In this document: in pieces, positions 6,272-41,134 of the stretch
How the letters are laid out: the number at the start of each line of letters is the position of its first letter
How positions within the stretch are numbered: the stretch's first letter is position 1
From: Escherichia phage vB_VIPECOTPH05A
Length of the DNA: 45,476 bases
Direction: 5' to 3' (one strand)
Sequence record: PQ429079.1
Position numbers and translations under genes: made by a program
The notes under the pieces: generated by a model
Seen by the model: the letters and a program-made list of their open reading frames with translations, nothing else
What the model was told of the DNA's origin: nothing
Database searches by the model: none

Positions 6272-6300
6272 AATAGTAGCCTATTCTATCTTAGTGTGCA
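6272..6300 (-). promoter_or_regulatory. sigma70-like promoter (TTGCAC-N17-TACTAT)
   Basis: -35 at 6295-6300 and -10 at 6272-6277 on minus strand, followed by conserved leader AACGAGAGGAGAGACAGAAG-ATG. Confidence 0.5.
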
Positions 6301-6530
6301 AGTAAATTTTATTGGTGTTTTAACGATAATTGTTCACCGCGAATACAGTAGTACCTCGGGCGTCTCGCCCACTGACGCCATCGCATAACACGGTACTTGT
6401 TGCCGTCTGACGCAACAATAAGCCTGAATCGCTTTTCTCCGTTTCTACCAGTCCAGGTTACGATGTCATTCAGTTTCATTGTTGCATCTCCTGCAATAGT
6501 CGCTTCGATTGTTGCGTTTGGTGAAATAGA

Positions 6531-7384: not shown

Positions 7385-7629
7385 CCTCCCTCAGAGTCGT
7401 CGGCACGAGCATCATGATTCGATGCCGTTCTGAATGTTACCGCTGGTGTGCCCAGGACATTCACGGTAAAGGCTTCACCATGTGATTGCTCTAAATCCCA
7501 CTCATCACCTTCCTCGTCTAAAACGTAGAGACGACCGTCGTAGTGTACTTTCAACGAATACTCGTTGCCTTTTATAAACCAACCGCCCATTTCTGCTTTA
7601 GACTCAATACAAATTAATTCTTCCATCAC
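7375..7629 (-). CDS. hypothetical protein
   Basis: 84-aa ORF in the early leftward operon, overlapping neighbours by a few nt. Confidence 0.4.
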   Translation of the reverse strand: MMEELICIESKAEMGGWFIKGNEYSLKVHYDGRLYVLDEEGDEWDLEQSHGEAFTVNVLGTPAVTFRTASNHDARADDSEGGCR

Positions 7630-7826
7630 TTCGCCCCTTTGAATTTAAAATTGTTGCCGATGAGCTTCATTTCATACTCTCGGTAATACGCCGTGGAACT
7701 TAACCCGTGCTCCCTGAGTAAGCTAACGACATAAGAACTTCGGTACACTGTCGATTTCTTTTCAATAATACCTAAGCTACCGTACATCGTTTTCACCAAC
7801 TGACCCTTCCTAAACATAACCCTCAC
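7626..7826 (-). CDS. hypothetical protein
   Basis: first ORF of leftward operon; GTG at 7826 or ATG at 7817; downstream of promoter at 7852-7880. Confidence 0.4.
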   Translation of the reverse strand: MRVMFRKGQLVKTMYGSLGIIEKKSTVYRSSYVVSLLREHGLSSTAYYREYEMKLIGNNFKFKGAK

Positions 7827-7851
7827 TCATCTGTCTCGTTTCGATAAGTGA

Positions 7852-7880
7852 ATAGTATCCTATTATGTTGGGGCGTGCAA
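7852..7880 (-). promoter_or_regulatory. sigma70-like promoter (TTGCAC-N17-TACTAT), leftward
   Basis: -35 at 7875-7880 and -10 at 7852-7857 on minus strand. Confidence 0.5.
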
Positions 7881-8280: not shown

Positions 8281-8311
8281 TTGTTTCGTTAACTGATAAT
8301 GGGGTTTGAGA

Positions 8312-27586: not shown

Positions 27587-28068
27587 ATTCGTGGAAACGT
27601 TGATTGCGCGGTTCCGTAGGCTTTAAGGAAGCAATTAAGCCCGTCGCCATAACAACCATACAAATCCGGCAGATTGCTAACAAGGCACTGGTTATATTCA
27701 TCCTGGAACGGCGATTTCTCGGCGGTTGCCGTGAAGGTAATCGTCCAGTTAATGCCGTCTTCGGTGGACTCCGCGATGGTGGATGTAATTGTTACCTGGT
27801 AATCCTCAATGCCCATGCCGAAGTCGTGCGCCATCCAGAAACTTGAAGCACCACCATCGACTTTCTCAATGAACGACAGAAACGCCTGTCGCCCTAGTGC
27901 TGAGGTAATCAGGGTTACGCTTATCGGGAACACGTCGTAATACGTGTCACGGCCCTGACGCACCCCGCCACCGGCTAAATCTACACTCCAGACGTTGTTA
28001 CGTCTGGTCATTGAGTAGCCTTTTGATACCACCGGCTTAAGGCTACGTGGAAAGTATAAGTCGCTCAT
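27568..28068 (-). CDS. minor tail protein (lambda M-like)
   Basis: FLSFIEKVDGGASSFWM resembles lambda gpM ESFLEEHGGWKSFLW; follows tape measure. Confidence 0.5.
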   Translation of the reverse strand: MSDLYFPRSLKPVVSKGYSMTRRNNVWSVDLAGGGVRQGRDTYYDVFPISVTLITSALGRQAFLSFIEKVDGGASSFWMAHDFGMGIEDYQVTITSTIAESTEDGINWTITFTATAEKSPFQDEYNQCLVSNLPDLYGCYGDGLNCFLKAYGTAQSTFPRIWDPMQ

Positions 28069-30395
28069 TATTTAAACCCCGGCGCATTTCTTGTGGCCTT
28101 GCGGGCCTTGCTAATCTTACTGTTGCTGTTCTGCAAAGAGGCAGCCACCTGCTCTTCTATGATGATGCGCAAACGGCCTTCGTCATCCTGCTCGGTAGAT
28201 ACGTTGCCAATCTGACTCGATGTGTTATTTACAATGGTAACATTAGATGGGCCAGAAGAAGACCCATTTTGCCCCATAATTTCTTTCATCTGCTGCGCAG
28301 TTCGTACGCGCGATGCACCAGCAGGCATGATAACTTCTGGTTTACCGCGTTCGGCGATGGTGGAAGCCTGCCCCGCAGATAACTGACCGCCCTGTTCACG
28401 TGCGGACCTGATAGCGGAAACCTGCGCCATACCTGCCCCAACGGCAGCGGCAGCGGCTACAGGGGCCAGGAACGGGCCAACTACAGGGATAGCCGCCGTG
28501 GACTTGTATGCCTCAATAGCTGCGGTGTACGTGGCTATAGTGGCCTGTACGATAGCGAATGCCTTATACGCGCCAGAAGCCTCACCCAACGCAGACCCGA
28601 TGTTTGAGGCCATGTTGCCAAAGGCCGTTGCCGTTGCGTCGGCGCGCTTCGTAGCATACTGCTCATTGATAGCGTTAAGCGCCGCCTGATACTGTTCCTC
28701 GTTAATAAGCCCCTGTTCACGGTATTTATCTGCGACCGCCAGTTTCTGCTGTTCCTGGATGTCGAGAAGCTCAAGCTCAGCGGCGTTCTGGCCCATAATC
28801 TGAGCCATGAAGTCGTCGCCTTTCTGCTGCTTTTCCTGCTGCTCTTTTCTTTTCTTATCCAGTTCTTCCTGTCTGGCCTGCTCGGCTGTGAGCATAATTT
28901 GAGTTTTGGCGTTTTCATACTGCTGCTGGCTTATCGTTCCGGCGCGGTTGAACTCCTCCAGTTTCGCCAGTTTCTGTTCTTCTGCCGCCGTGATACGAGA
29001 AATTTCGTCTCCAGTAGTGCGGTCGACAGTAGCCAGGAAATCTTCGGCGGCTTTCTTCTGACGTTGCGCCGCCGTTTCTTCACGTTTGGCCTGCGCCGCC
29101 AGACGTTTCTCGTTCGATTTAGCCTCGCGGTCTGCCTTCGCTTTTTCGGTAGCGTCGATGCGGGCGATGTCTTGCTGCGCTTCCGCGTCACGGGCAGCGT
29201 TATACGCGGCTATCTGTTCTTTGGTGACAGCTTCACGTTTAGCGAACGCCTGCTTATCCAGTTCAGCTTGTGCCCGGATGCGCTCACGGTCGCTTAAGAT
29301 GGCAATTTGCTGATTCTTGACGATAGCTTCGTTCTGCTCCTGGAACCTCTGTGTGGTTGAGTTAACGTTACGTCCAAGATTCTTTTGGGCCTCTGCCGCC
29401 GCGTTTGCTGACTTCTCTGCGTTCTCCAGTGCCGTGGCGTTCTTATTGGCATTGTCAGTCAGGCGGATAAGTTCCGGGTTCAACTGTTTTGTGTTACCGA
29501 GCCAGTCGGTAAACACATCGGCGATACGACGGGCATTCTCGGCGGTTGGTTCTTTGTTAAACGCACTCTGCGCCGCTATCATCTCCAGCGCCTGGTCACG
29601 GTTAACTCCGAACTTACTGCTAAGCTCCGCGATATTCTGCGCCAGCATGTTGACGCCCACGATGTTACCTTCGTAAGTGCCGCCGAGTTTTTCTAACGTG
29701 TCGCCTACATCCGCACCCTTAGATACCAGTGCATCGTACTGACTAATAGCCGATGTCGTGGAGGCTTTCCACGTTTCCCACGATTCGGCATCTTCACGAA
29801 CAGCTTTAGCGGTTTGCTGTGCGATAAGGTCCGCGTTAGCCTTAGCCAGAGCAAGCTGAGTCTCCGCCGCCTCCCTACTGATTTGGGTAAGCTGGATAAG
29901 GCCGTCTGTCAGTTCGAGGGAGCCAGATGCCGTTTGCTGGAAAGTATCTTTTAACTGTTTCTGTGCGGCTTCGAGGTCTTTTGAACTGCCTTCTGCTTCG
30001 GTTAGCGATTTGTACAGTACCCCGCCAACAGCCGACGCTAGCGCGATTACCGCTCCAAGTACAGCACCCCCCGGTCCGAAGGCACCTGCAAGCTGGGAGC
30101 CTTGTTGCCCTATCGCTACGAATGCGGACGTGCCGGACTGCAACTGGACGACCATGTCCTGTACCTGGAAGCCCACCTGCCCGGCGGCGTTACGGAACTT
30201 GGCAAAACCGTCGGACGCGGCTTTAGAGGTAGCGGTGTTAACTTTATTAACATCCGGAGTTAGTTTGTTTACAGATGCGTCCGCCCGGTCTGCGGATGCC
30301 GCCATAGCGTCAAGCTGTTTGGCGGCGACGTCAGCCCCTTCAGTTTTTACTCTGGCGATTAGGGAAGCCGTATCAGCCATCTTCTCTGCCCTCAA
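28068..30395 (-). CDS. tail tape measure protein
   Basis: 775 aa, Ala/Gln/Glu-rich coiled-coil; C-terminal hydrophobic/Gly-rich region; downstream of G/GT chaperones. Confidence 0.8.
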   Translation of the reverse strand: MRAEKMADTASLIARVKTEGADVAAKQLDAMAASADRADASVNKLTPDVNKVNTATSKAASDGFAKFRNAAGQVGFQVQDMVVQLQSGTSAFVAIGQQGSQLAGAFGPGGAVLGAVIALASAVGGVLYKSLTEAEGSSKDLEAAQKQLKDTFQQTASGSLELTDGLIQLTQISREAAETQLALAKANADLIAQQTAKAVREDAESWETWKASTTSAISQYDALVSKGADVGDTLEKLGGTYEGNIVGVNMLAQNIAELSSKFGVNRDQALEMIAAQSAFNKEPTAENARRIADVFTDWLGNTKQLNPELIRLTDNANKNATALENAEKSANAAAEAQKNLGRNVNSTTQRFQEQNEAIVKNQQIAILSDRERIRAQAELDKQAFAKREAVTKEQIAAYNAARDAEAQQDIARIDATEKAKADREAKSNEKRLAAQAKREETAAQRQKKAAEDFLATVDRTTGDEISRITAAEEQKLAKLEEFNRAGTISQQQYENAKTQIMLTAEQARQEELDKKRKEQQEKQQKGDDFMAQIMGQNAAELELLDIQEQQKLAVADKYREQGLINEEQYQAALNAINEQYATKRADATATAFGNMASNIGSALGEASGAYKAFAIVQATIATYTAAIEAYKSTAAIPVVGPFLAPVAAAAAVGAGMAQVSAIRSAREQGGQLSAGQASTIAERGKPEVIMPAGASRVRTAQQMKEIMGQNGSSSGPSNVTIVNNTSSQIGNVSTEQDDEGRLRIIIEEQVAASLQNSNSKISKARKATRNAPGFK

Positions 30396-31151
30396 ATATT
30401 CCGTCTAAGCCCATGATAACCTCGGCTTCGAACAAACTTATGCCGTAACCGGCGACATCGCGAAACGCAGCCAAATCTTGCCATTTGAGCGCATCGCGCG
30501 GGATTATAACGATAGTATCATCTGTTTCGCGCTGTAGGAATTTAATGGCCCGGTATTTCTCGAACACGTCGATAAGAGAAACGGGGCATTCCGGCCCCGT
30601 CGCTTCTTTCATCTGCGGTTCTTTAATCACGCCCATTGCAATCAAAGCCGCCTGGTGTCCCGCCGCGATGTCGTCGAATTGCTTACGTTTGTGGCGGTCG
30701 ACAAAGCACCATTGCGCAAATTCATACAGCGCTTTTACTTTTCCGAGAGTTTCTCGCGGCTATCGGTGTGGTGCTTAACTACAGCCTCCGCCAACCCACT
30801 GTACTGGTCGAACAGGTTAGCCAGCGCCTCTTTACTGAACGGCTCATCGAAGGACCAACCGGTGACGATTTCCACGGCGAGCTGCTTGTTCAGGTCCATA
30901 ACCCGCCAGCCCTTCTCATCGTTATAGCGCGCCCAGTTATTCAATGCCTCACACTCTTTATCTAACGGCGCAAGTTCTTCCGTAAGGCGTCGAATTGCCG
31001 TTGTGTAGGCGCGGCCTGCTCGAACGCCCGCATCGCAATCGGGGCCAATGACCTGCAGCCATTCGCCAGAGTCTTTTCCGCTAGGCAGAAGGATTGGCAT
31101 TTTAGTACCGGCGGCGTGACGGTCGGCAAAATAGAAATCAGAAAGTTTCAT
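30373..31151 (-). CDS. tail assembly chaperone frameshift product (GT-like, via -1 frameshift near 30738)
   Basis: -1 frame is open from the G stop region through 30373; ORF-track 30373..30645 is its 3' part. Confidence 0.5.
30735..31151 (-). CDS. tail assembly chaperone (G-like)
   Basis: 138-aa ORF upstream of tape measure, ends ...SEK at slippery GAA-AAG-TAA. Confidence 0.6.
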   Translation of the reverse strand: MKLSDFYFADRHAAGTKMPILLPSGKDSGEWLQVIGPDCDAGVRAGRAYTTAIRRLTEELAPLDKECEALNNWARYNDEKGWRVMDLNKQLAVEIVTGWSFDEPFSKEALANLFDQYSGLAEAVVKHHTDSREKLSEK

Positions 31152-31258
31152 TCTTTAGTCCTTTGGTTAAGAGGTTACTGGTTATGGTTAATGCGCCAGG
31201 CGGGAACCACCCGCTTTTCGTGTGCGACACTAGGCGCAAACTTATTCTAACACACTAC

Positions 31259-31287
31259 TTGCACACCCCAATATAATAGGGTACTAT
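31259..31287 (+). promoter_or_regulatory. sigma70-like promoter (TTGCAC-N17-TACTAT) for opposite-strand island
   Basis: drives plus-strand genes from 31316 inside the minus-strand tail operon. Confidence 0.5.
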
Positions 31288-31315
31288 TCACCCGTAACTT
31301 ACTGAGGAAACAATT

Positions 31316-31642
31316 ATGCGTAAATTAGTATTAGCTCTGGGGTTTATGTCTTTTGCTACTTTTGGGACTCCGTGTGAACAGGTATTTAGCGAATCTGTTC
31401 TTATGACTTCTGGTGTGCTTGAGAAAGCCGACCCTACTATTGTAAAGGCATTTAAGGACTCTACCGTTCGCGAGTGTGAAGCCGCCGTAGAGGTTGGTAA
31501 ATCTGGTCTACCTCCGCAAGCAGTAACATACACGGTGATACGTTCGGTAGAGAAAAACGGAGACGCGTTTTACAGCCTGCTGACAGCCACCCGCCTGCAA
31601 ATGGTAATGGCTGGATGGGCGATAGGCGCGGAAAGTAAATAG
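31316..31642 (+). CDS. secreted/periplasmic small protein (signal peptide)
   Basis: N-terminus MRKLVLALGFMSFATFG is signal-peptide-like; RBS GAGGAAA. Confidence 0.55.
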   Translation: MRKLVLALGFMSFATFGTPCEQVFSESVLMTSGVLEKADPTIVKAFKDSTVRECEAAVEVGKSGLPPQAVTYTVIRSVEKNGDAFYSLLTATRLQMVMAGWAIGAESK

Positions 31643-31708
31643 TCGCCTTTATTTAAAGGAACGCACTGTGGTTAAATAGGACAAATCCTAAACGCGAGGA
31701 AGTAAAGC

Positions 31709-32839
31709 ATGGCCCAGATTAAAATAACCGACGAACAGTTACAGGAAGAATTGAACGCCGGAACAAAGATTATCGACATATCCCGTAAATACGGCATCTC
31801 AGACCGAGTTATTCGTATCCGTAAAGCGAAGCTGGCGAAGAAAGGCGTAGGTCACGGTCGTGACGTTAGCCATCTTGTCCCGGACGGCTACAAGATTAAA
31901 GGCACGTCGTCACTTGTTGACGAGTTCGGCAACACTAAACTGCAATGGGTTAAGACTGATACCGACGCCGAACGTCAGGTTGAATTGATGAAAGCCGTAA
32001 TTGAAGGCATGAAGTCAGAGATTACGCCCGTTGCGCCTGTTAAAGCTGTTCGCGCCAAACGCGACGACAAGCTACTCAATCTTTACACGGTATCTGATTT
32101 CCATCTCGGTATGCTGGCATGGGCTGATGAGAGCGGAGACGACTGGGACATGAAGATTGCAGAAGACCTGTTCTCCCGATGGTTCGACGCGGCGTTCCAG
32201 AAAGCACCGGATGCAGGAACAGGAGTTATTAACCTTCTGGGCGACCTCGCTCACTTCGATAGTCTGGATGCGGTTACACCTGCAAGTGGTCATGTTCTTG
32301 ACGCGGACACGCGCTATCAGAAACTTGTACGCTACATGATTCGTATGGTCCGCCGTGTCGTTGATATGGCTCTGGTTAAACATAAAAATGTTCGCTTGCT
32401 TATCGTGCAAGGGAATCACGACGAAAGTGGCATGATTTGGTTGGCTGAGATGTTCAGCACGCTGTACGACAATGAGCCGCGTGTGTTCGTCGATACGTCG
32501 CCGGATGTTTACAAGATGGTGCAACACGGCAAAACGACGCTGTTCTTCCATCACGGACATAAAGCACGCTTCGACGCTATCGAACCGGTTATGATTGCCA
32601 AGTTCCGCAAAGCGTTCGGCGAGAGCGTTTATAGCTACGCCCACGTAGGCCACCTGCACCACCAGAAAATTGTAGAAAGCCGTAACATGATTGTTGAGCA
32701 ACACCGCACCCTGGCGGCTAAAGACGCCTACGCCTCTCGCGGCGGATGGATGTCAGGTCGTAGTGCAAATGTAATTACTTATAGCGCCGAATATGGTGAG
32801 GTCGCACGTTTAACTATTTCACCGGAGATGCTGGGATGA
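31709..32839 (+). CDS. HTH-fused calcineurin-like metallophosphoesterase
   Basis: N-terminal HTH (IIDISRKYGISDRVIRIRKAK); phosphoesterase motifs SDFHLG, GDLAHFD, QGNHDE, HHGH, GHLHH. Confidence 0.6.
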   Translation: MAQIKITDEQLQEELNAGTKIIDISRKYGISDRVIRIRKAKLAKKGVGHGRDVSHLVPDGYKIKGTSSLVDEFGNTKLQWVKTDTDAERQVELMKAVIEGMKSEITPVAPVKAVRAKRDDKLLNLYTVSDFHLGMLAWADESGDDWDMKIAEDLFSRWFDAAFQKAPDAGTGVINLLGDLAHFDSLDAVTPASGHVLDADTRYQKLVRYMIRMVRRVVDMALVKHKNVRLLIVQGNHDESGMIWLAEMFSTLYDNEPRVFVDTSPDVYKMVQHGKTTLFFHHGHKARFDAIEPVMIAKFRKAFGESVYSYAHVGHLHHQKIVESRNMIVEQHRTLAAKDAYASRGGWMSGRSANVITYSAEYGEVARLTISPEMLG

Positions 32840-33036
32840 AAGACATGTATGAATGCACCGAGGTAAGTCCGTATGCAGAGAAAAATGGGTTCGAAGTAGG
32901 TGCGGTGTACGAAGGAGTCACCCTAGAGAATGGCGATGTAAGAATGTATTCGCCTAAATATCGCAGCTTCTTTGAAATAGGCAACATTAACGAGTCAGGC
33001 ATAGCCAGATTTAAGAGAGTTAACAGTGACAAATAA
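32836..33036 (+). CDS. hypothetical protein
   Basis: 66-aa ORF, ATGA-coupled to the phosphoesterase gene. Confidence 0.4.
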   Translation: MKDMYECTEVSPYAEKNGFEVGAVYEGVTLENGDVRMYSPKYRSFFEIGNINESGIARFKRVNSDK

Positions 33037-33256
33037 ATACAACCGCACAATGACAAACACCTACGGCAGCACTATGACTGTAGACGTTTACGATGTACTA
33101 CGCGCATTCGATATACGCGACCCGGCGTTACAGCACGCATTGAAGAAGTTATTGTGCATGGGTCTTCGCGGCCACAAAGATACCGGGACAGACTTAGCGG
33201 AAGCAATTGAAAGTCTGGAGAAGTTACGGGAGTACAGGAGTAATATTGATGAGTAA
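33026..33256 (+). CDS. hypothetical protein
   Basis: 76-aa ORF. Confidence 0.4.
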   Translation: MTNKYNRTMTNTYGSTMTVDVYDVLRAFDIRDPALQHALKKLLCMGLRGHKDTGTDLAEAIESLEKLREYRSNIDE

Positions 33257-33422
33257 GAATGTAATGAAAACAATATACATAATCCGCGTATACGACAAAG
33301 AATGGGACGAGTGGAATGATATCTATGCTGTAAGTAGCCGGGAAGATGCGTTAGATGAATATTCACGGCTTCGGGATAAAGGAGAACTCGTTAACTTCTA
33401 CCCTATGCAATTGAAGGAATAA
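33249..33422 (+). CDS. hypothetical protein (57 aa)
   Basis: ORF 33207..33422; likely ATG at 33249 with AGGAG RBS. Confidence 0.4.
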   Translation: MSKNVMKTIYIIRVYDKEWDEWNDIYAVSSREDALDEYSRLRDKGELVNFYPMQLKE

Positions 33423-33452
33423 GAAAAAGGCCCCGTTAGGGGCCTTAGTTTT
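33422..33452. terminator. bidirectional rho-independent terminator
   Basis: stem AGGCCCC/GGGGCCT flanked by A5 and T-rich runs, between island and major tail gene. Confidence 0.7.
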
Positions 33453-34617
33453 ATACGTAACTAATACGTTGAATTACGATGGACGACTGGTACTGATTGC
33501 CTGTGGACTGTCCTTCTATGCTCTGAGTGATTGACTCAGGCCCGCCAATCTCTGGCGTAACCGCCGTAAGTTCCGCACGTTTCAAACTGAAAGACATAGC
33601 CCCGTTTACCCCCGCCAGAATAGAGTTAATCTCTACCTGCTGTTCGTTGATAAACTTCTGAATCATCACCATGTCGTACAGCTTGCCGGAGATAGAGAAG
33701 GTGTTAGCCGCGCGTCCACGTTCCACGAACGCCACGCTACTGTTGCCGAGTTCGAACTGCGCGGATGCGCTGTTGTCGTTGGTGATGGTCAGAGTATCGC
33801 AACGCAACGGCGTAGAACCGTCGAACACAGACACATCTACGGATGAGAACGGCTCGTCACCAAACGTAACAGAGGAGAAGTCGGAACCAGACGGCGCCGC
33901 GGTAAGAATCTCCTGGCTGCGCCCGATGAACGGGAAGCTGCCCGTCACCATCGCGTTAACGGCCTGTTCAACAGTGAAACCAGAAACTTCCACGCCTTTG
34001 GTAAGCGTGTACGCGTCTGTCCCGCCGCACTGGCCCTTGTACCAGGTGAGAATAGAGAACGTCTTACACTGGCTGCCTGTTTCCAGTTTGTCGCCGGTCT
34101 TAGCCGCGGTAGTAGCAGTCTCGGTGATCAGAGTGTGTTGAATACCTGCACCAGTTACCACCAGTGCCTCTACCGCAGTAACAATAAACGGTTTAGCGTT
34201 ATCGCCGGTTAAGCCAGTAAACGCAATCAGGTCGCCTACTTCCACACCGTCAGTAATAAAGCTACCTTCGGCACGGGTGAACGTCTTGCCCACCGGTGCG
34301 ACGGTAATCGACAGCCCCGACAGAGAAACACCGGATTGCCACGTAGAGCCTAAAGCACCCGCCAGCCAGTCGTCCTGGCTTTTAGAGCTAAGCTCGACCG
34401 CGTATTCACCGCTAACCTGTTTGTTACCGGTTCGAATGGATGTAGTTTCACGGCTGCCGTCGAGTTCGTTGGAGGTCAGCGCATCGCGGGTTACCGCAGG
34501 AACACCGCCCGTATTGCGCAGCGGCGACCAGGCAGGGTTGGCTGGGGTTACGCCCGGGGTCACTTCCGCCACATAGAATTGCGCTGTATTCGCGCCCTTA
34601 AAAGGAGTTGTAGCCAT
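33451..34617 (-). CDS. major tail protein
   Basis: 388-aa Thr/Ser/Gly-rich protein between tail-terminator-like and chaperone genes. Confidence 0.6.
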   Translation of the reverse strand: MATTPFKGANTAQFYVAEVTPGVTPANPAWSPLRNTGGVPAVTRDALTSNELDGSRETTSIRTGNKQVSGEYAVELSSKSQDDWLAGALGSTWQSGVSLSGLSITVAPVGKTFTRAEGSFITDGVEVGDLIAFTGLTGDNAKPFIVTAVEALVVTGAGIQHTLITETATTAAKTGDKLETGSQCKTFSILTWYKGQCGGTDAYTLTKGVEVSGFTVEQAVNAMVTGSFPFIGRSQEILTAAPSGSDFSSVTFGDEPFSSVDVSVFDGSTPLRCDTLTITNDNSASAQFELGNSSVAFVERGRAANTFSISGKLYDMVMIQKFINEQQVEINSILAGVNGAMSFSLKRAELTAVTPEIGGPESITQSIEGQSTGNQYQSSIVIQRISYV

Positions 34618-34619
34618 AT

Positions 34620-35036
34620 TTACAGCCTCTTGGTGAATGCAATAAAGTTAATTGACAATGGTCGTTTGGCCCATCCGTTTTCTACAATCAGCGGCCCCAG
34701 GCTTACCGATTGAACCTCGGCGCAGATGTCGTTACGTGAAAATGACTTACCTGCTTTAAATGCCGTGTTAAGTAAGTCTGCCATTTTATTGATTGGCGCG
34801 CTACCTTTCACCGATGCGTAGTTAATGTCGACCTGATAAACACCTGAGCGTTGTTCTGTGAAGAACAAATCCGCCTGTTCTGTATCCGCAAGTAACATGT
34901 AACTTGCCAGATACGGCGTATCGGTTGACGTCGGCGCGTCGATGTTTTCAAGCGAGACCTTGATGCCGTTGGTTGTTCCGAAGGCTACCAGCGGCACATC
35001 AAATGCTTTGGTTAAGTCCTCAAAGTAGCCCATCAT
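34620..35036 (-). CDS. tail terminator / tail completion protein (putative)
   Basis: 138-aa ORF immediately upstream of major tail protein (gene order). Confidence 0.45.
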   Translation of the reverse strand: MMGYFEDLTKAFDVPLVAFGTTNGIKVSLENIDAPTSTDTPYLASYMLLADTEQADLFFTEQRSGVYQVDINYASVKGSAPINKMADLLNTAFKAGKSFSRNDICAEVQSVSLGPLIVENGWAKRPLSINFIAFTKRL

Positions 35037-39741: not shown

Positions 39742-40005
39742 CTATTCCAGAATATTCCTCACGTAATCCTGCAACATGAACACTTTCAGTCTCAGTTGCC
39801 GTACACATTCGGCGTTCTGAACGTCGATAGCTAAATCCTCGTCTGCGTCGCTACTTGGCAGTGCCAGTTTGCACGGCGGCTGCATCATCGGCATACCCGG
39901 GGATGGAATTGGCGTTTGCGACGGCGCGGGACTTGAGCTGCACCCGCTCAGGGTCAAAAGTGCACACGCTGCGGCCAGGCGTTTTAATGTACTTAACGAC
40001 TTCAC
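39742..40005 (-). CDS. outer-membrane spanin lipoprotein (Rz1-like)
   Basis: lipobox LTLSGC, Pro-rich mature region; overlaps Rz-like gene in another frame. Confidence 0.6.
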   Translation of the reverse strand: MKSLSTLKRLAAACALLTLSGCSSSPAPSQTPIPSPGMPMMQPPCKLALPSSDADEDLAIDVQNAECVRQLRLKVFMLQDYVRNILE

Positions 40006-40237
40006 GGGTTATCACCTCTGATTTCGTTTTGCCTTCGTTGTCAGCGGCGGCGGCCTTTGATTCATCCTGCTGCTGCCGTTGTGTTTTCTTCGCGAACTCA
40101 GCCTGTGCTTTCTGCTGTTGCTGCGAAACGAGATTAGCACGGCCTTCACCCCAGCCGCTGCGGTATTGATAGATGCCGTGTGCGTAGGCCAGGACGACGA
40201 AACATGCTCCGGCTACGACAGTTGCTTTAAGATTCAT
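39851..40237 (-). CDS. inner-membrane spanin (Rz-like)
   Basis: N-terminal TMD ATVVAGACFVVLAYA followed by Gln/Ala/Lys-rich predicted helix. Confidence 0.6.
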   Translation of the reverse strand: MNLKATVVAGACFVVLAYAHGIYQYRSGWGEGRANLVSQQQQKAQAEFAKKTQRQQQDESKAAAADNEGKTKSEVITREVVKYIKTPGRSVCTFDPERVQLKSRAVANANSIPGYADDAAAVQTGTAK

Positions 40238-40556: not shown

Positions 40557-40585
40557 TTGCGCGCACCAACATAATAGGGTACTAT
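40557..40585 (+). promoter_or_regulatory. sigma70-like promoter (TTGCGC-N17-TACTAT)
   Basis: same -10/start context (GGGTACTATTCA) as promoter at 31259. Confidence 0.5.
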
Positions 40586-40612
40586 TCAGTTAACTTAAAC
40601 AGGAGATGAGAA

Positions 40613-41134
40613 ATGATTACTACAGTAATTACTTTCCCTGCGTATGTAGGGGCGAAAATATGCAGGGCTAAAAATGATGTGCGCTACTATTTGAACGCTT
40701 TTTACATAGACCCTGAAGGATTGATAGTGTCTACGGACGGTCATAGATTGTTCTGCGACAATGTGAAGACCAACGTTGAGAAAGGGACTCTCATAGACAT
40801 CAAAGGGAGAGAGCCTTCTAAATTTAACTACGCGGAGGTAAACCACGACAACGGCAGTGTATCTTTCTATGACGATAATCGTGCGCTTATATGTACACTT
40901 CCGGTAGATGTTGTAGAAGGAAACTTTCCTGACTGGAGACGCGTGGTGCACATCACACCGGGTGTTGTCGATAGTATAGGGTTCACTCTGCGCTATTTGG
41001 CAGACGCGTACAAGATTTCTAAGGCATACAAAAATGAAATTGCTCGTTTCGATTTCCAGGACCAAACCAGAGGATGCAAAATACAATTTTCAAACACGGC
41101 CTTTATGGTGTTAATGCCCGCGCGATTTAAATAA
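40613..41134 (+). CDS. hypothetical protein (opposite-strand moron)
   Basis: 173-aa ORF with AGGAG RBS, own promoter and terminator; possible PD-(D/E)XK-like pattern STDGHRL...IDIKGRE (weak). Confidence 0.55.
   Translation: MITTVITFPAYVGAKICRAKNDVRYYLNAFYIDPEGLIVSTDGHRLFCDNVKTNVEKGTLIDIKGREPSKFNYAEVNHDNGSVSFYDDNRALICTLPVDVVEGNFPDWRRVVHITPGVVDSIGFTLRYLADAYKISKAYKNEIARFDFQDQTRGCKIQFSNTAFMVLMPARFK

Follow-up and report, generated by a model that had tools for sequence, protein, structure and literature searches.

The genome of Escherichia phage vB_VIPECOTPH05A (sequence record PQ429079.1), a Kagunavirus-like siphophage of the Guernseyvirinae, was analysed as one stretch of 45,476 nucleotides (nt), hereafter the window. 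Between its tail-tube gene and its tail-assembly-chaperone (TAC) genes lie five tightly packed open reading frames (ORFs) on the plus strand, encoding proteins of 108, 376, 66, 76 and 57 amino acids (aa), which we call P108, MPE (a metallophosphoesterase fused to a helix-turn-helix, HTH, domain), P66, P76 and P57, and which together form what we call the cassette (Table 1). A preliminary description had read this block as an island on the opposite strand to the tail operon, with a promoter and a bidirectional terminator of its own, and had proposed moron-type cargo with roles in anti-defence, superinfection exclusion or host takeover. Our comparison with related phages indicates instead that the cassette is a long-standing mosaic feature of the subfamily, in which a conserved enzyme core, MPE, is combined with two exchangeable slots, slot 1 on the chaperone side and slot 2 downstream.

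Table 1. Features of the cassette, its control region and the flanking tail genes, with the further copies of the promoter motif (positions in the window)
Feature	Position	Strand	Description
Tape measure protein (TMP)	28068-30395	-	
TAC-T	30373-30645	-	PF23812
TAC-G	30735-31151	-	PF08748
Divergent control region	31152-31315		Between TAC-G start and P108
GGTTA repeats x4 (TAACC on - strand)	31165-31190		Directly upstream of TAC-G ribosome-binding site
Hairpin	31200-31214		GCGGG-AACCA-CCCGC, then TTTT on + strand; single copy in window, invariant in six phages
Cassette promoter (putative)	31259-31290	+	TTGCAC, 17 nt, TACTAT (31259-31287) in 32-nt phage-specific motif
P108	31316-31642	+	108 aa; slot 1
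MPE	31709-32839	+	376 aa; HTH-fused metallophosphoesterase; core gene
P66	32836-33036	+	66 aa; slot 2
P76	33026-33256	+	76 aa; GTG start; slot 2
P57	33249-33422	+	57 aa; slot 2; longest ORF starts at 33207 (71 aa)
Shared hairpin terminator (putative)	33427-33446		8-bp stem with 6 GC pairs; called on both strands
Tail tube	33451-34617	-	PF18906, E=2e-36; right-hand cassette boundary
Tail terminator protein	34620-35036	-	
Promoter motif copy 2, exact	40557-40588	+	5' of lone 173-aa ORF 40613-41134
Promoter motif copy 3, exact	7849-7880	-	Heads small-ORF array; divergent from replication genes
Promoter motif copy 4, 6 mismatches	6273-6301	-	Heads small-ORF array

The ORFs, their overlaps and the families of the flanking genes confirm a five-gene block on the opposite strand inside the tail operon. 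MPE and P66 overlap by 4 nt (ATGA at 32836-32839), P66 and P76 by 11 nt and P76 and P57 by 8 nt, and since start and stop codons overlap between successive genes, the five ORFs are best read as one operon. All five appear to be genuine genes under purifying selection, with ratios of nonsynonymous to synonymous substitution (dN/dS) against relatives of 0.05 for P108, 0.03 for MPE and 0.04 for both P66 and P76; for P57 this is based on two pairs only, which gave a ratio of about 0.3. The GC content is 0.43-0.47 at both ends of the block, compared with 0.52-0.58 in the flanks, and 0.50-0.52 over MPE, which is near the genome-wide level.

At the DNA level the region 30300-34700 has matches in 449 phage records, the top one being E. 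coli phage hz69 (91%). Using the tube protein we retrieved 54 IMG/VR loci, which were typed by local tblastn, and the 34 loci with a tube identity of at least 89% and the tube/TAC junction present were taken as the close set. MPE was found on the opposite strand at the junction in all 34. The gene adjoining TAC was P108 in nine of them, a member of the Imm family (PF14373) in 24 and another gene in one, and P108 and Imm were never found together. Downstream of MPE the 34 loci carried P76, P66 with P76, P76 with P57, extra inserts, or a HAD-PNK gene (PF25109) followed by a deoxynucleoside monophosphate (dNMP) kinase gene of phrog_139, with or without P57; this last pair, which is absent from the cassette studied here, is the slot-2 content of phage K1H and of 16 of the 34 relatives. 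In a comparison of five phages, gene gains fell cleanly at gene junctions. Presence or absence among close relatives is therefore a property of P108, P66, P76 and P57 and not of MPE. In GenBank the tube (at least 60% identity) was found in 493 records, Imm in 350 and P108 in 98, all of the latter Guernseyvirinae; Imm and P108 add up to 448 records, compared with the 449 that match the whole region.

More distant relatives (tube identity 64-70%) have, among other states, one small envelope-targeted gene at the junction or an empty junction. In two loci (L047 and L048) only 94 bp separate tube and TAC and there is no cargo, which bears out the earlier claim that the two are normally neighbours and places the cassette between genes that are adjacent in relatives. 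A single P108-like gene (phrog_14165) occupies the junction in Serratia phage Eta-type and other contigs, a 120-aa signal-peptide protein with two cysteines does so in the Cornellvirus FSL SP-031, and Klebsiella phage VLCpiS11a has a YebO-like membrane peptide of 84 aa there, while other distant loci have a Rha/ANT protein or homologs of the ORF at 7626-7826 of the window, an early-type gene. Since no MPE was found anywhere in the FSL SP-031 genome, MPE is better seen as an added module than as a part of tail assembly. These states in the more distant relatives indicate that the junction is an old landing site for early-type cargo on the opposite strand, that its first occupant was a small envelope protein, and that MPE joined it as a further module in the Jerseyvirus/Kagunavirus lineage. 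As to whether relatives carry the same genes at the same position in a structural role, the position holds for MPE and the structural role does not.

MPE matches phrog_704 over almost its entire length (E=8.8e-165; residues 5-375 on positions 3-389 of the 390 in the profile). By tblastn its family is present in 2,043 phage records, which include Guernseyvirinae, Drexlerviridae, Dhillonvirus and phages of Vibrio, Campylobacter and roseobacters. Homology is full-length, including the N-terminal domain, at 41-48% identity to Drexlerviridae (e.g., KP36 gp63) and 76% to Dhillonvirus. In the sampled Salmonella Jerseyviruses MPE is 88-89% identical, whereas the tube is about 70% identical, and this higher conservation across genera argues that MPE is not disposable cargo. 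P76 likewise exceeds the adjacent tube when E. coli and Salmonella phages are compared (92% aa identity against about 70%), and a second MPE allele, of about 55% identity, is present in some Jerseyviruses. Together these comparisons hint that genera have exchanged the cassette.

The Pfam families Metallophos (PF00149) and Metallophos_2 (PF12850) scored MPE below their gathering cut-offs (18.9 against 21.5 bits, and 21.6 against 27), and it represents a divergent clade of the superfamily. The nearest 120 homologs are all 97-99% identical, and we aligned 44 sequences of 31-49% identity from a search of 50% representatives. In this alignment no variation occurs at D130, H132, G178, D179, N236, H237, H282, G314 or H317, and at least 90% of the sequences retain H315, so that all five motifs of calcineurin-like binuclear metallophosphoesterases are found (D-x-H, G-D, G-N-H-[DE], H and G-H-x-H). 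With every metal-binding and catalytic motif retained across the 44 sequences, MPE is probably enzymatically active. The signature of lambda phosphatase-like PPP-type protein phosphatases (GDxHG, GDxVDRG, GNHE) is not found; MPE reads SDFHLG, GDLAHFD and GNHDE, with no RG after motif II.

An AlphaFold2 model (mean predicted local distance difference test, pLDDT, 90.6) places an N-terminal three-helix HTH-like domain and a linker of beta-hairpin and helix before the metallophosphoesterase core (119-376). Foldseek returned 132 matches in the PDB at E<=0.001, and the 50 listed belong nearly all to the metallophosphoesterase superfamily, with its four-layer alpha/beta-beta/alpha fold; they include Rv0805 (the best single match), Mre11, PolD DP1, YfcE and GpdQ, at template modelling (TM) scores of 0.3-0.45 and 10-16% identity. 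Against BFVD, Foldseek found uncharacterised phage homologs only, and when the sequences of MPE, P76 and P108 were searched directly against the PDB, none had a significant match. A profile of 44 MPE homologs, searched against the same database, gave a weak GerE/LuxR-type HTH match at the N-terminus (E=0.085).

The flavour of the motifs (DxHLG, GDLxH, GNHD) is Mre11-like, and MPE shares with Mre11/SbcD and T4 gp47 the common binuclear fold and the motifs D-x-H-L-G, G-D-L-x-H, G-N-H-D and G-H-x-H. Sequence similarity to Mre11/SbcD falls short of significance (E=0.3-0.4; the Mre11 profile matches against the PDB had E=0.33-0.38, with no stretch passing), TM scores are 0.36-0.45, there is no Rad50/SbcC gene here, and the capping and partner-binding architecture is replaced by the HTH-like N-terminal domain. 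The closest known relatives are the 'DNA repair exonuclease' family of T1p16 and phrog_704, which resembles MPE over the full length, including the HTH-like domain and the motif set; the annotators of KP36 also liken gp63 to T1p16. Among phages at large the family is found in DNA-metabolism or late-early regions. In Drexlerviridae and Dhillonvirus its gene is co-oriented with its neighbours in a DNA-metabolism or lysis-proximal region, whereas here it interrupts the tail operon in the opposite orientation. The KP36 gene comes downstream of those for helicase, VRR-NUC and Dam and is followed by HAD-PNK and dNMP kinase genes just before the lysis genes, in Bas85 it is located after the lysis genes, and the K1H-type Kagunaviruses have the same trio as KP36, whereas the phage studied here keeps MPE without the two partners.

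Three features, namely the fused HTH domain, the setting among DNA-metabolism genes and the phosphatase and dNMP kinase that recur as partners, lead us to favour a role for MPE as a DNA phosphodiesterase in host-DNA breakdown and salvage or in end processing. A functional precedent is gp48 of mycobacteriophage A10ZJ24, a metallophosphoesterase with all five motifs that is reported to be expressed early and to damage and degrade host genomic DNA (PMC12287305). Its recognised likeness to MPE is at superfamily level, no HTH fusion is reported for it and its genomic context differs; the ten genera listed for the 2,043 tblastn matches, to which 53 further genera contribute, do not include Mycobacterium. 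Literature searches found no direct study of a tested function for this MPE family, and the papers on Metis, retron and Borvo escape were unrelated to it.

In slot 1, P108 matches phrog_14165 (E=9e-56) and has no match in Pfam, PF14373 included, NCBIfam or PADLOC-DB. Its N-terminus is tripartite, short and hydrophobic, and is followed by an S-F-A site; C20 and C54 are conserved, and the AlphaFold2 model is all-helical (pLDDT 78). P108 is thus predicted to be a secreted, disulfide-bonded helical protein of the periplasm, and we consider it a candidate superinfection-exclusion factor. A Foldseek search of the model against the PDB gave no match at E<=0.001, the best (E=2.3) being to unrelated helical proteins. 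The alleles that fill slot 1 in phage Snoke and in Salmonella phage SETP7 match PF14373 (E=3e-13 and 5e-15), the family of T4 Imm, which occupies the place of P108 in most relatives and with which P108 shares neither detectable sequence nor fold similarity. The earlier suggestion of superinfection exclusion is thus reasonable for slot 1, where about 350 relatives have a PF14373 protein, and does not extend to an Imm match in P108 itself. The annotated start of the Snoke 'superinfection immunity protein' (L003, 2563-2892; 109 aa) is probably too far upstream, since about the first 33 codons are translated from the conserved promoter region; the PF14373 match starts only at residue 61, and the counterpart in SETP7 is 59 aa long. 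Apparent Imm matches in P108-type loci were rejected as translations of the conserved intergenic promoter region that lies within this over-long Snoke annotation.

Two other exclusion proteins invite comparison. T4 Spackle is a small, secreted, helical protein with a disulfide, and P108 is alike in being small, predicted secreted, helical and probably disulfide-bonded, but shows no fold similarity to the solved Spackle structures. The gp15 moron in the tail cluster of HK97, in work attributed to Cumby et al. 2012, reportedly mediates superinfection exclusion through tape-measure-dependent DNA entry. Like P108, it is a small envelope-targeted gene beside chaperone and tape measure protein (TMP) genes, and for P108 a coupling to the type of TMP is suggested by linkage. 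The two have no sequence relationship, gp15 is an inner-membrane protein whereas P108 is predicted to be periplasmic, and P108 is encoded on the opposite strand. In the temperate HK97 it is the prophage that expresses gp15, while Kagunaviruses are treated as virulent.

The linkage in question is complete in our sample: the type of slot 1 goes with the allele of the chaperones and tape measure. In the 33 close loci with either gene, P108 and Imm are mutually exclusive. All nine P108 loci have TAC-G and TAC-T 97-100% identical and a TMP N-terminus 95-99% identical to the window, whereas in all 24 Imm loci the chaperones are about 50% identical and the TMP N-terminus is undetectable by tblastn. 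Identity in the tube, the tail terminator protein and MPE is about 90-99% whichever class is considered (89-96% for the tube), except in one Imm locus, where MPE is at 60%. TAC-G, TAC-T and the TMP N-terminus hence form two deeply diverged allele classes inside tail modules that are otherwise about 90-99% identical, a dimorphism that had been recorded but left uninterpreted in the Smith-Huggins phages, where P differs from G and L (PMC5582158). In GenBank the TMP type of the window (at least 80% identity) is found in 97 records compared with 98 for P108, and among the rows listed the sampled phage names coincide, for E. coli and Salmonella phages alike. The linkage spans two genera, with P108 down to 58% and TMP down to 83% identity; the counts are phylogenetically non-independent. 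It fits exclusion factors matched to the genome-delivery machinery and also fits plain hitch-hiking, and it is the sole new lead to come out of this analysis.

Of the three genes in slot 2, P66 is acidic (isoelectric point, pI, 5.0), and has no family match in PHROG, Pfam, NCBIfam or PADLOC-DB. Among 50,697 phage records, 25 contain it (92-100% identity), and these are without exception E. coli phages of the Kagunavirus type; compared with Bas73 and SETP7, the P66 gene is cleanly inserted. P57 is also acidic (pI 4.8), patchy and fast-evolving, is present in 22 of the same 50,697 records (21 Escherichia/Kagunavirus and one Shigella; 50-100% identity) and co-occurs with both kinds of slot-2 content. 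As judged by their distribution, P66 and P57 are the only parts of the cassette that fit the description of a moron-like accessory gene without qualification.

P76 is a different case. It carries a domain of about 55 aa with the core DVYDVL.AF...QHALKK.LC.GLRGHKD..DL.EAI, which occurs in 773 phage records from many families, and it alternates in relatives with the pair of HAD-PNK and dNMP kinase. P76 matches the C-terminal part of PHROGs 2452, 17613 and 18443, of about 235-253 aa, and is standalone in most metagenomic homologs. In phage JenP1 (Nonagvirus; L009, 1913-2674) a P76-type domain forms the C-terminus of a 253-aa protein, the gene of which lies between QueE and QueC in a 7-deazaguanine DNA-modification cluster. 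The idea that P76 is a C-terminal remnant of the ATP-binding protein of K1H was rejected, as the two show zero similarity and both Bas73 and SETP7 conserve P76 as a gene of its own. An assignment to DUF3310 (PF11753) or T7 gp1.7-like proteins, which a motif pattern, one GenBank label and a Cornellvirus 'nucleotide kinase' in a similar context had suggested, was unsupported by HMMER and hhalign: PF11753 matched none of 16 P76-family members at E<=5, and hhalign of the P76 family with the DUF3310 protein gp20 of FSL SP-031 (E=8e-20 to PF11753) gave a probability of 0.1%.

The region that controls the cassette is itself well conserved. Across six phages its alignment has 83% mean column identity with long invariant runs, and it is kept across Kagunavirus and Jerseyvirus although the genes on either side are swapped; in Imm-type phages it is flanked by a TAC-G of about 50% identity and a slot-1 gene unrelated to P108. 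The putative promoter lies in a 32-nt motif, TTGCRCRCNCCAAYATAATAGGRTACTATTCA, of which the window has three exact copies, compared with none in 100 shuffles, and its -35 and -10 hexamers with the 17-nt spacing (TTGCAY-17-TAYTAT) are retained in SETP7. The earlier claim of a separate promoter is therefore upheld, on a sequence basis. Since the other copies of the motif head small-ORF arrays or a lone DNA-metabolism ORF, we place the cassette in the phage's non-structural, probably early, promoter class. The arrays behind the copies at 7849-7880 and 6273-6301 consist of ORFs of 49-92 aa and then one of 179 aa, with no assigned function; they are divergent from the replication genes starting near 8306 and resemble an early-gene block. 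The only RNA-sequencing study of a Kagunavirus, that of K1B4, grouped its Imm gene with methylase and DNA-polymerase genes, apart from those of capsid and tail (PMC12645636), and this grouping speaks for regulation distinct from the tail genes, not for early timing.

The right-hand end of the cassette is marked by the hairpin at 33427-33446, which probably ends both the cassette transcript on the plus strand and the tail-tube transcript on the minus strand, in keeping with the bidirectional terminator described earlier. In five phages its stem (AAGGCCCC/GGGGCCTT) is invariant while the loop differs (GTTA, TTTC, AAAC, GAAA), and the T-run is better on the minus strand. At the other end, the GGTTA repeats are the sole cluster of at least three GGTTA within 30 bp in the window and are invariant in six phages. 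A TAACC-rich leader (L047, 7215-7240) also precedes TAC in the cassette-less relative L047, and the repeats are probably part of the leader of the chaperone and tape-measure mRNA and not an element of the cassette. A possible extended -10 promoter, TGTTAGAAT, faces TAC and TMP at 31244-31252 on the minus strand, with its TG and TA positions kept in SETP7; if it is real, the tail operon would consist of two transcription units.

The second exact copy of the motif stands before a plus-strand ORF of 173 aa (40613-41134) that belongs to phrog_3007, 'RusA-like resolvase', and has weak matches to polymerase processivity factors. Together they form a second opposite-strand insertion (40557-41134), among minus-strand spanin and head genes. 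The spanins, beside head genes at 39742-40237, are an Rz/Rz1-type pair of a 128-aa i-spanin and an overlapping 87-aa lipoprotein ORF; this Rz1 ORF is not fully embedded and runs past the Rz stop.

Building on the observed anatomy, conservation, mosaicism, linkage and motif integrity, we consider it on balance probable that the block is one transcription unit of non-structural genes, in opposite orientation at the break after the major tail gene, made up of three layers of different age. For its timing, localisation, enzymatic substrate and exclusion activity we infer the following. Transcription of the cassette would start at one of the copies that the phage has of its own early-type promoter motif and would stop at the hairpin shared with the tail-tube transcript. 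In the first layer, the chaperone-side slot would predate the diversification of the subfamily as a place for a small envelope-targeted protein, here P108 and in about 78% of relatives a membrane protein of the T4 Imm family; P108 and Imm would block genome entry of superinfecting phages, with a specificity matched to the type of tape measure. In the second, the HTH-fused binuclear MPE of the T1p16/phrog_704 family would act as a Mn2+-dependent phosphodiesterase on DNA, on which its N-terminal HTH would hold it, and would serve either host-DNA breakdown with nucleotide salvage or DNA-end processing, a role proposed because relatives put a 3'-phosphatase and a dNMP kinase directly behind MPE. 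The third would be the hypervariable tail of P66, P76 and P57, gained and lost at gene junctions.

Several observations weigh against parts of this account. A generic sigma-70 scan made no call at 31259-31287, where the -35 fits three of six positions only, and the K1B4 study, with coarse sampling, labels the class of its Imm gene 'late' (PMC12645636). For MPE, nucleases and phosphodiesterases of small molecules or cyclic nucleotides fit the fold about equally, a partner of Rad50/SbcC type is absent from the cassette and from beside the homologs in K1H, KP36, Bas85 and SETP7, and the phosphatase and kinase partners are absent in this phage. Different enzymatic roles may then be considered. MPE could heal RNA ends as a 2',3'-cyclic phosphodiesterase and 3'-phosphatase, similar to lambda phosphatase or the metallophosphoesterase domain of bacterial Pnkp, and together with the split PNK of relatives repair tRNAs cut by host anticodon nucleases. 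T4 Pnk and Rnl1 counter PrrC in this way, Clostridium thermocellum Pnkp has a binuclear metallophosphoesterase as its phosphatase domain, and MPE does lie directly 5' of a PF25109 HAD_PNKP gene (E=7e-20) and a P-loop kinase gene in K1H-type Kagunaviruses and Drexlerviridae. We nevertheless find this quite improbable: the relatives inspected have no RNA ligase in or beside the cassette, the P-loop protein falls in a dNMP-kinase and not a polynucleotide-kinase PHROG, the N-terminal HTH points to DNA, and MPE is still kept here where both partners are absent. Alternatively, MPE could be an anti-defence enzyme directed at a nucleotide pool or at a small molecule that signals immunity, which it would break down (cyclic nucleotides, cyclic oligonucleotides or NAD-derived molecules), as the best Foldseek match, the cyclic-nucleotide phosphodiesterase Rv0805, the matches to YfcE and GpdQ, and a CPT annotation note of HHpred similarity to the phosphodiesterase MJ0936 might suggest. 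Matches of this kind are common to the whole superfamily (TM 0.3-0.45) and nucleases match equally, while work on nucleic acids agrees better with the HTH-like fusion and with neighbours that act on DNA and nucleotides, which makes this role very improbable.

The wider proposal that this phage recently took up the entire 2.3-kb block as moron-type cargo, for anti-defence, exclusion or host takeover, and can dispense with it in the basic lytic cycle, draws on a separate opposite-strand unit with what appear to be its own promoter and terminator, the lower GC at both ends, the empty junction in L047 and L048, a Cornellvirus of the same subfamily without MPE, the patchiness of P66 and P57 and the Imm-family genes in slot 1 of relatives. 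We judge it unlikely for the block as a whole, since MPE is at the junction in 34 of 34 close loci and the region in 449 GenBank records, MPE is more conserved across genera than the tube, under strong purifying selection and genome-like in GC, its family sits in DNA-metabolism regions of T1-like phages, and P76 is widespread. For anti-defence in particular no assignment was obtained for any of the five genes; none of the proteins matched NCBIfam or PADLOC-DB, the latter being a set of defence-system models and so uninformative on anti-defence. A more serious objection concerns P108, which may be unrelated to exclusion, with another periplasmic role (lysis timing, envelope remodelling or an aid to assembly with this type of TMP), or linked to TMP by hitch-hiking. 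It matches no known exclusion protein (Imm, Spackle, Cor or Llp) and no solved protein in sequence or fold, and its linkage to TMP may reflect adjacency, as only about 160 bp of homology lie between the diverged blocks, so that recombinants would be rare anyway, and the loci are not independent counts. This objection is a real possibility, although we doubt it: P108 and a bona fide Imm-family gene replace each other cleanly in the slot, small envelope-targeted proteins are at the junction in all cargo-bearing distant relatives, the linkage holds in two genera over the range of identities given above, and an opposite strand with an early-type promoter is unlike an assembly factor. Taking P108 as an exclusion factor one step further, the slot-1 gene and the TMP/chaperone block might be a co-adapted pair, giving two 'injection classes' in the Guernseyvirinae (TMP A with P108, TMP B with Imm), in which each factor shuts the entry route of its own class; we offer this as a tentative idea with the odds against it.

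The practical weight of these findings comes from how common the block is. Its annotation is inconsistent across hundreds of Salmonella and E. coli phage genomes, with labels such as 'DNA polymerase II small subunit', 'DNA repair exonuclease', 'phosphatase', 'glycoprotein precursor' and 'phosphodiesterase', and many of these phages are in development for therapy or in use as chassis for synthetic biology. The distinction between a stable MPE, a swappable exclusion slot and exchangeable downstream content is relevant to genome minimisation and to the design of cocktails, in which phages that share a slot-1/TMP class may exclude each other. The phrog_704 MPE family, present in about 2,000 phage genomes, is a target for functional work. 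If the co-adapted pairing is true, P108 would represent a new family of periplasmic exclusion proteins, and the determinant of its specificity would be the tape measure.

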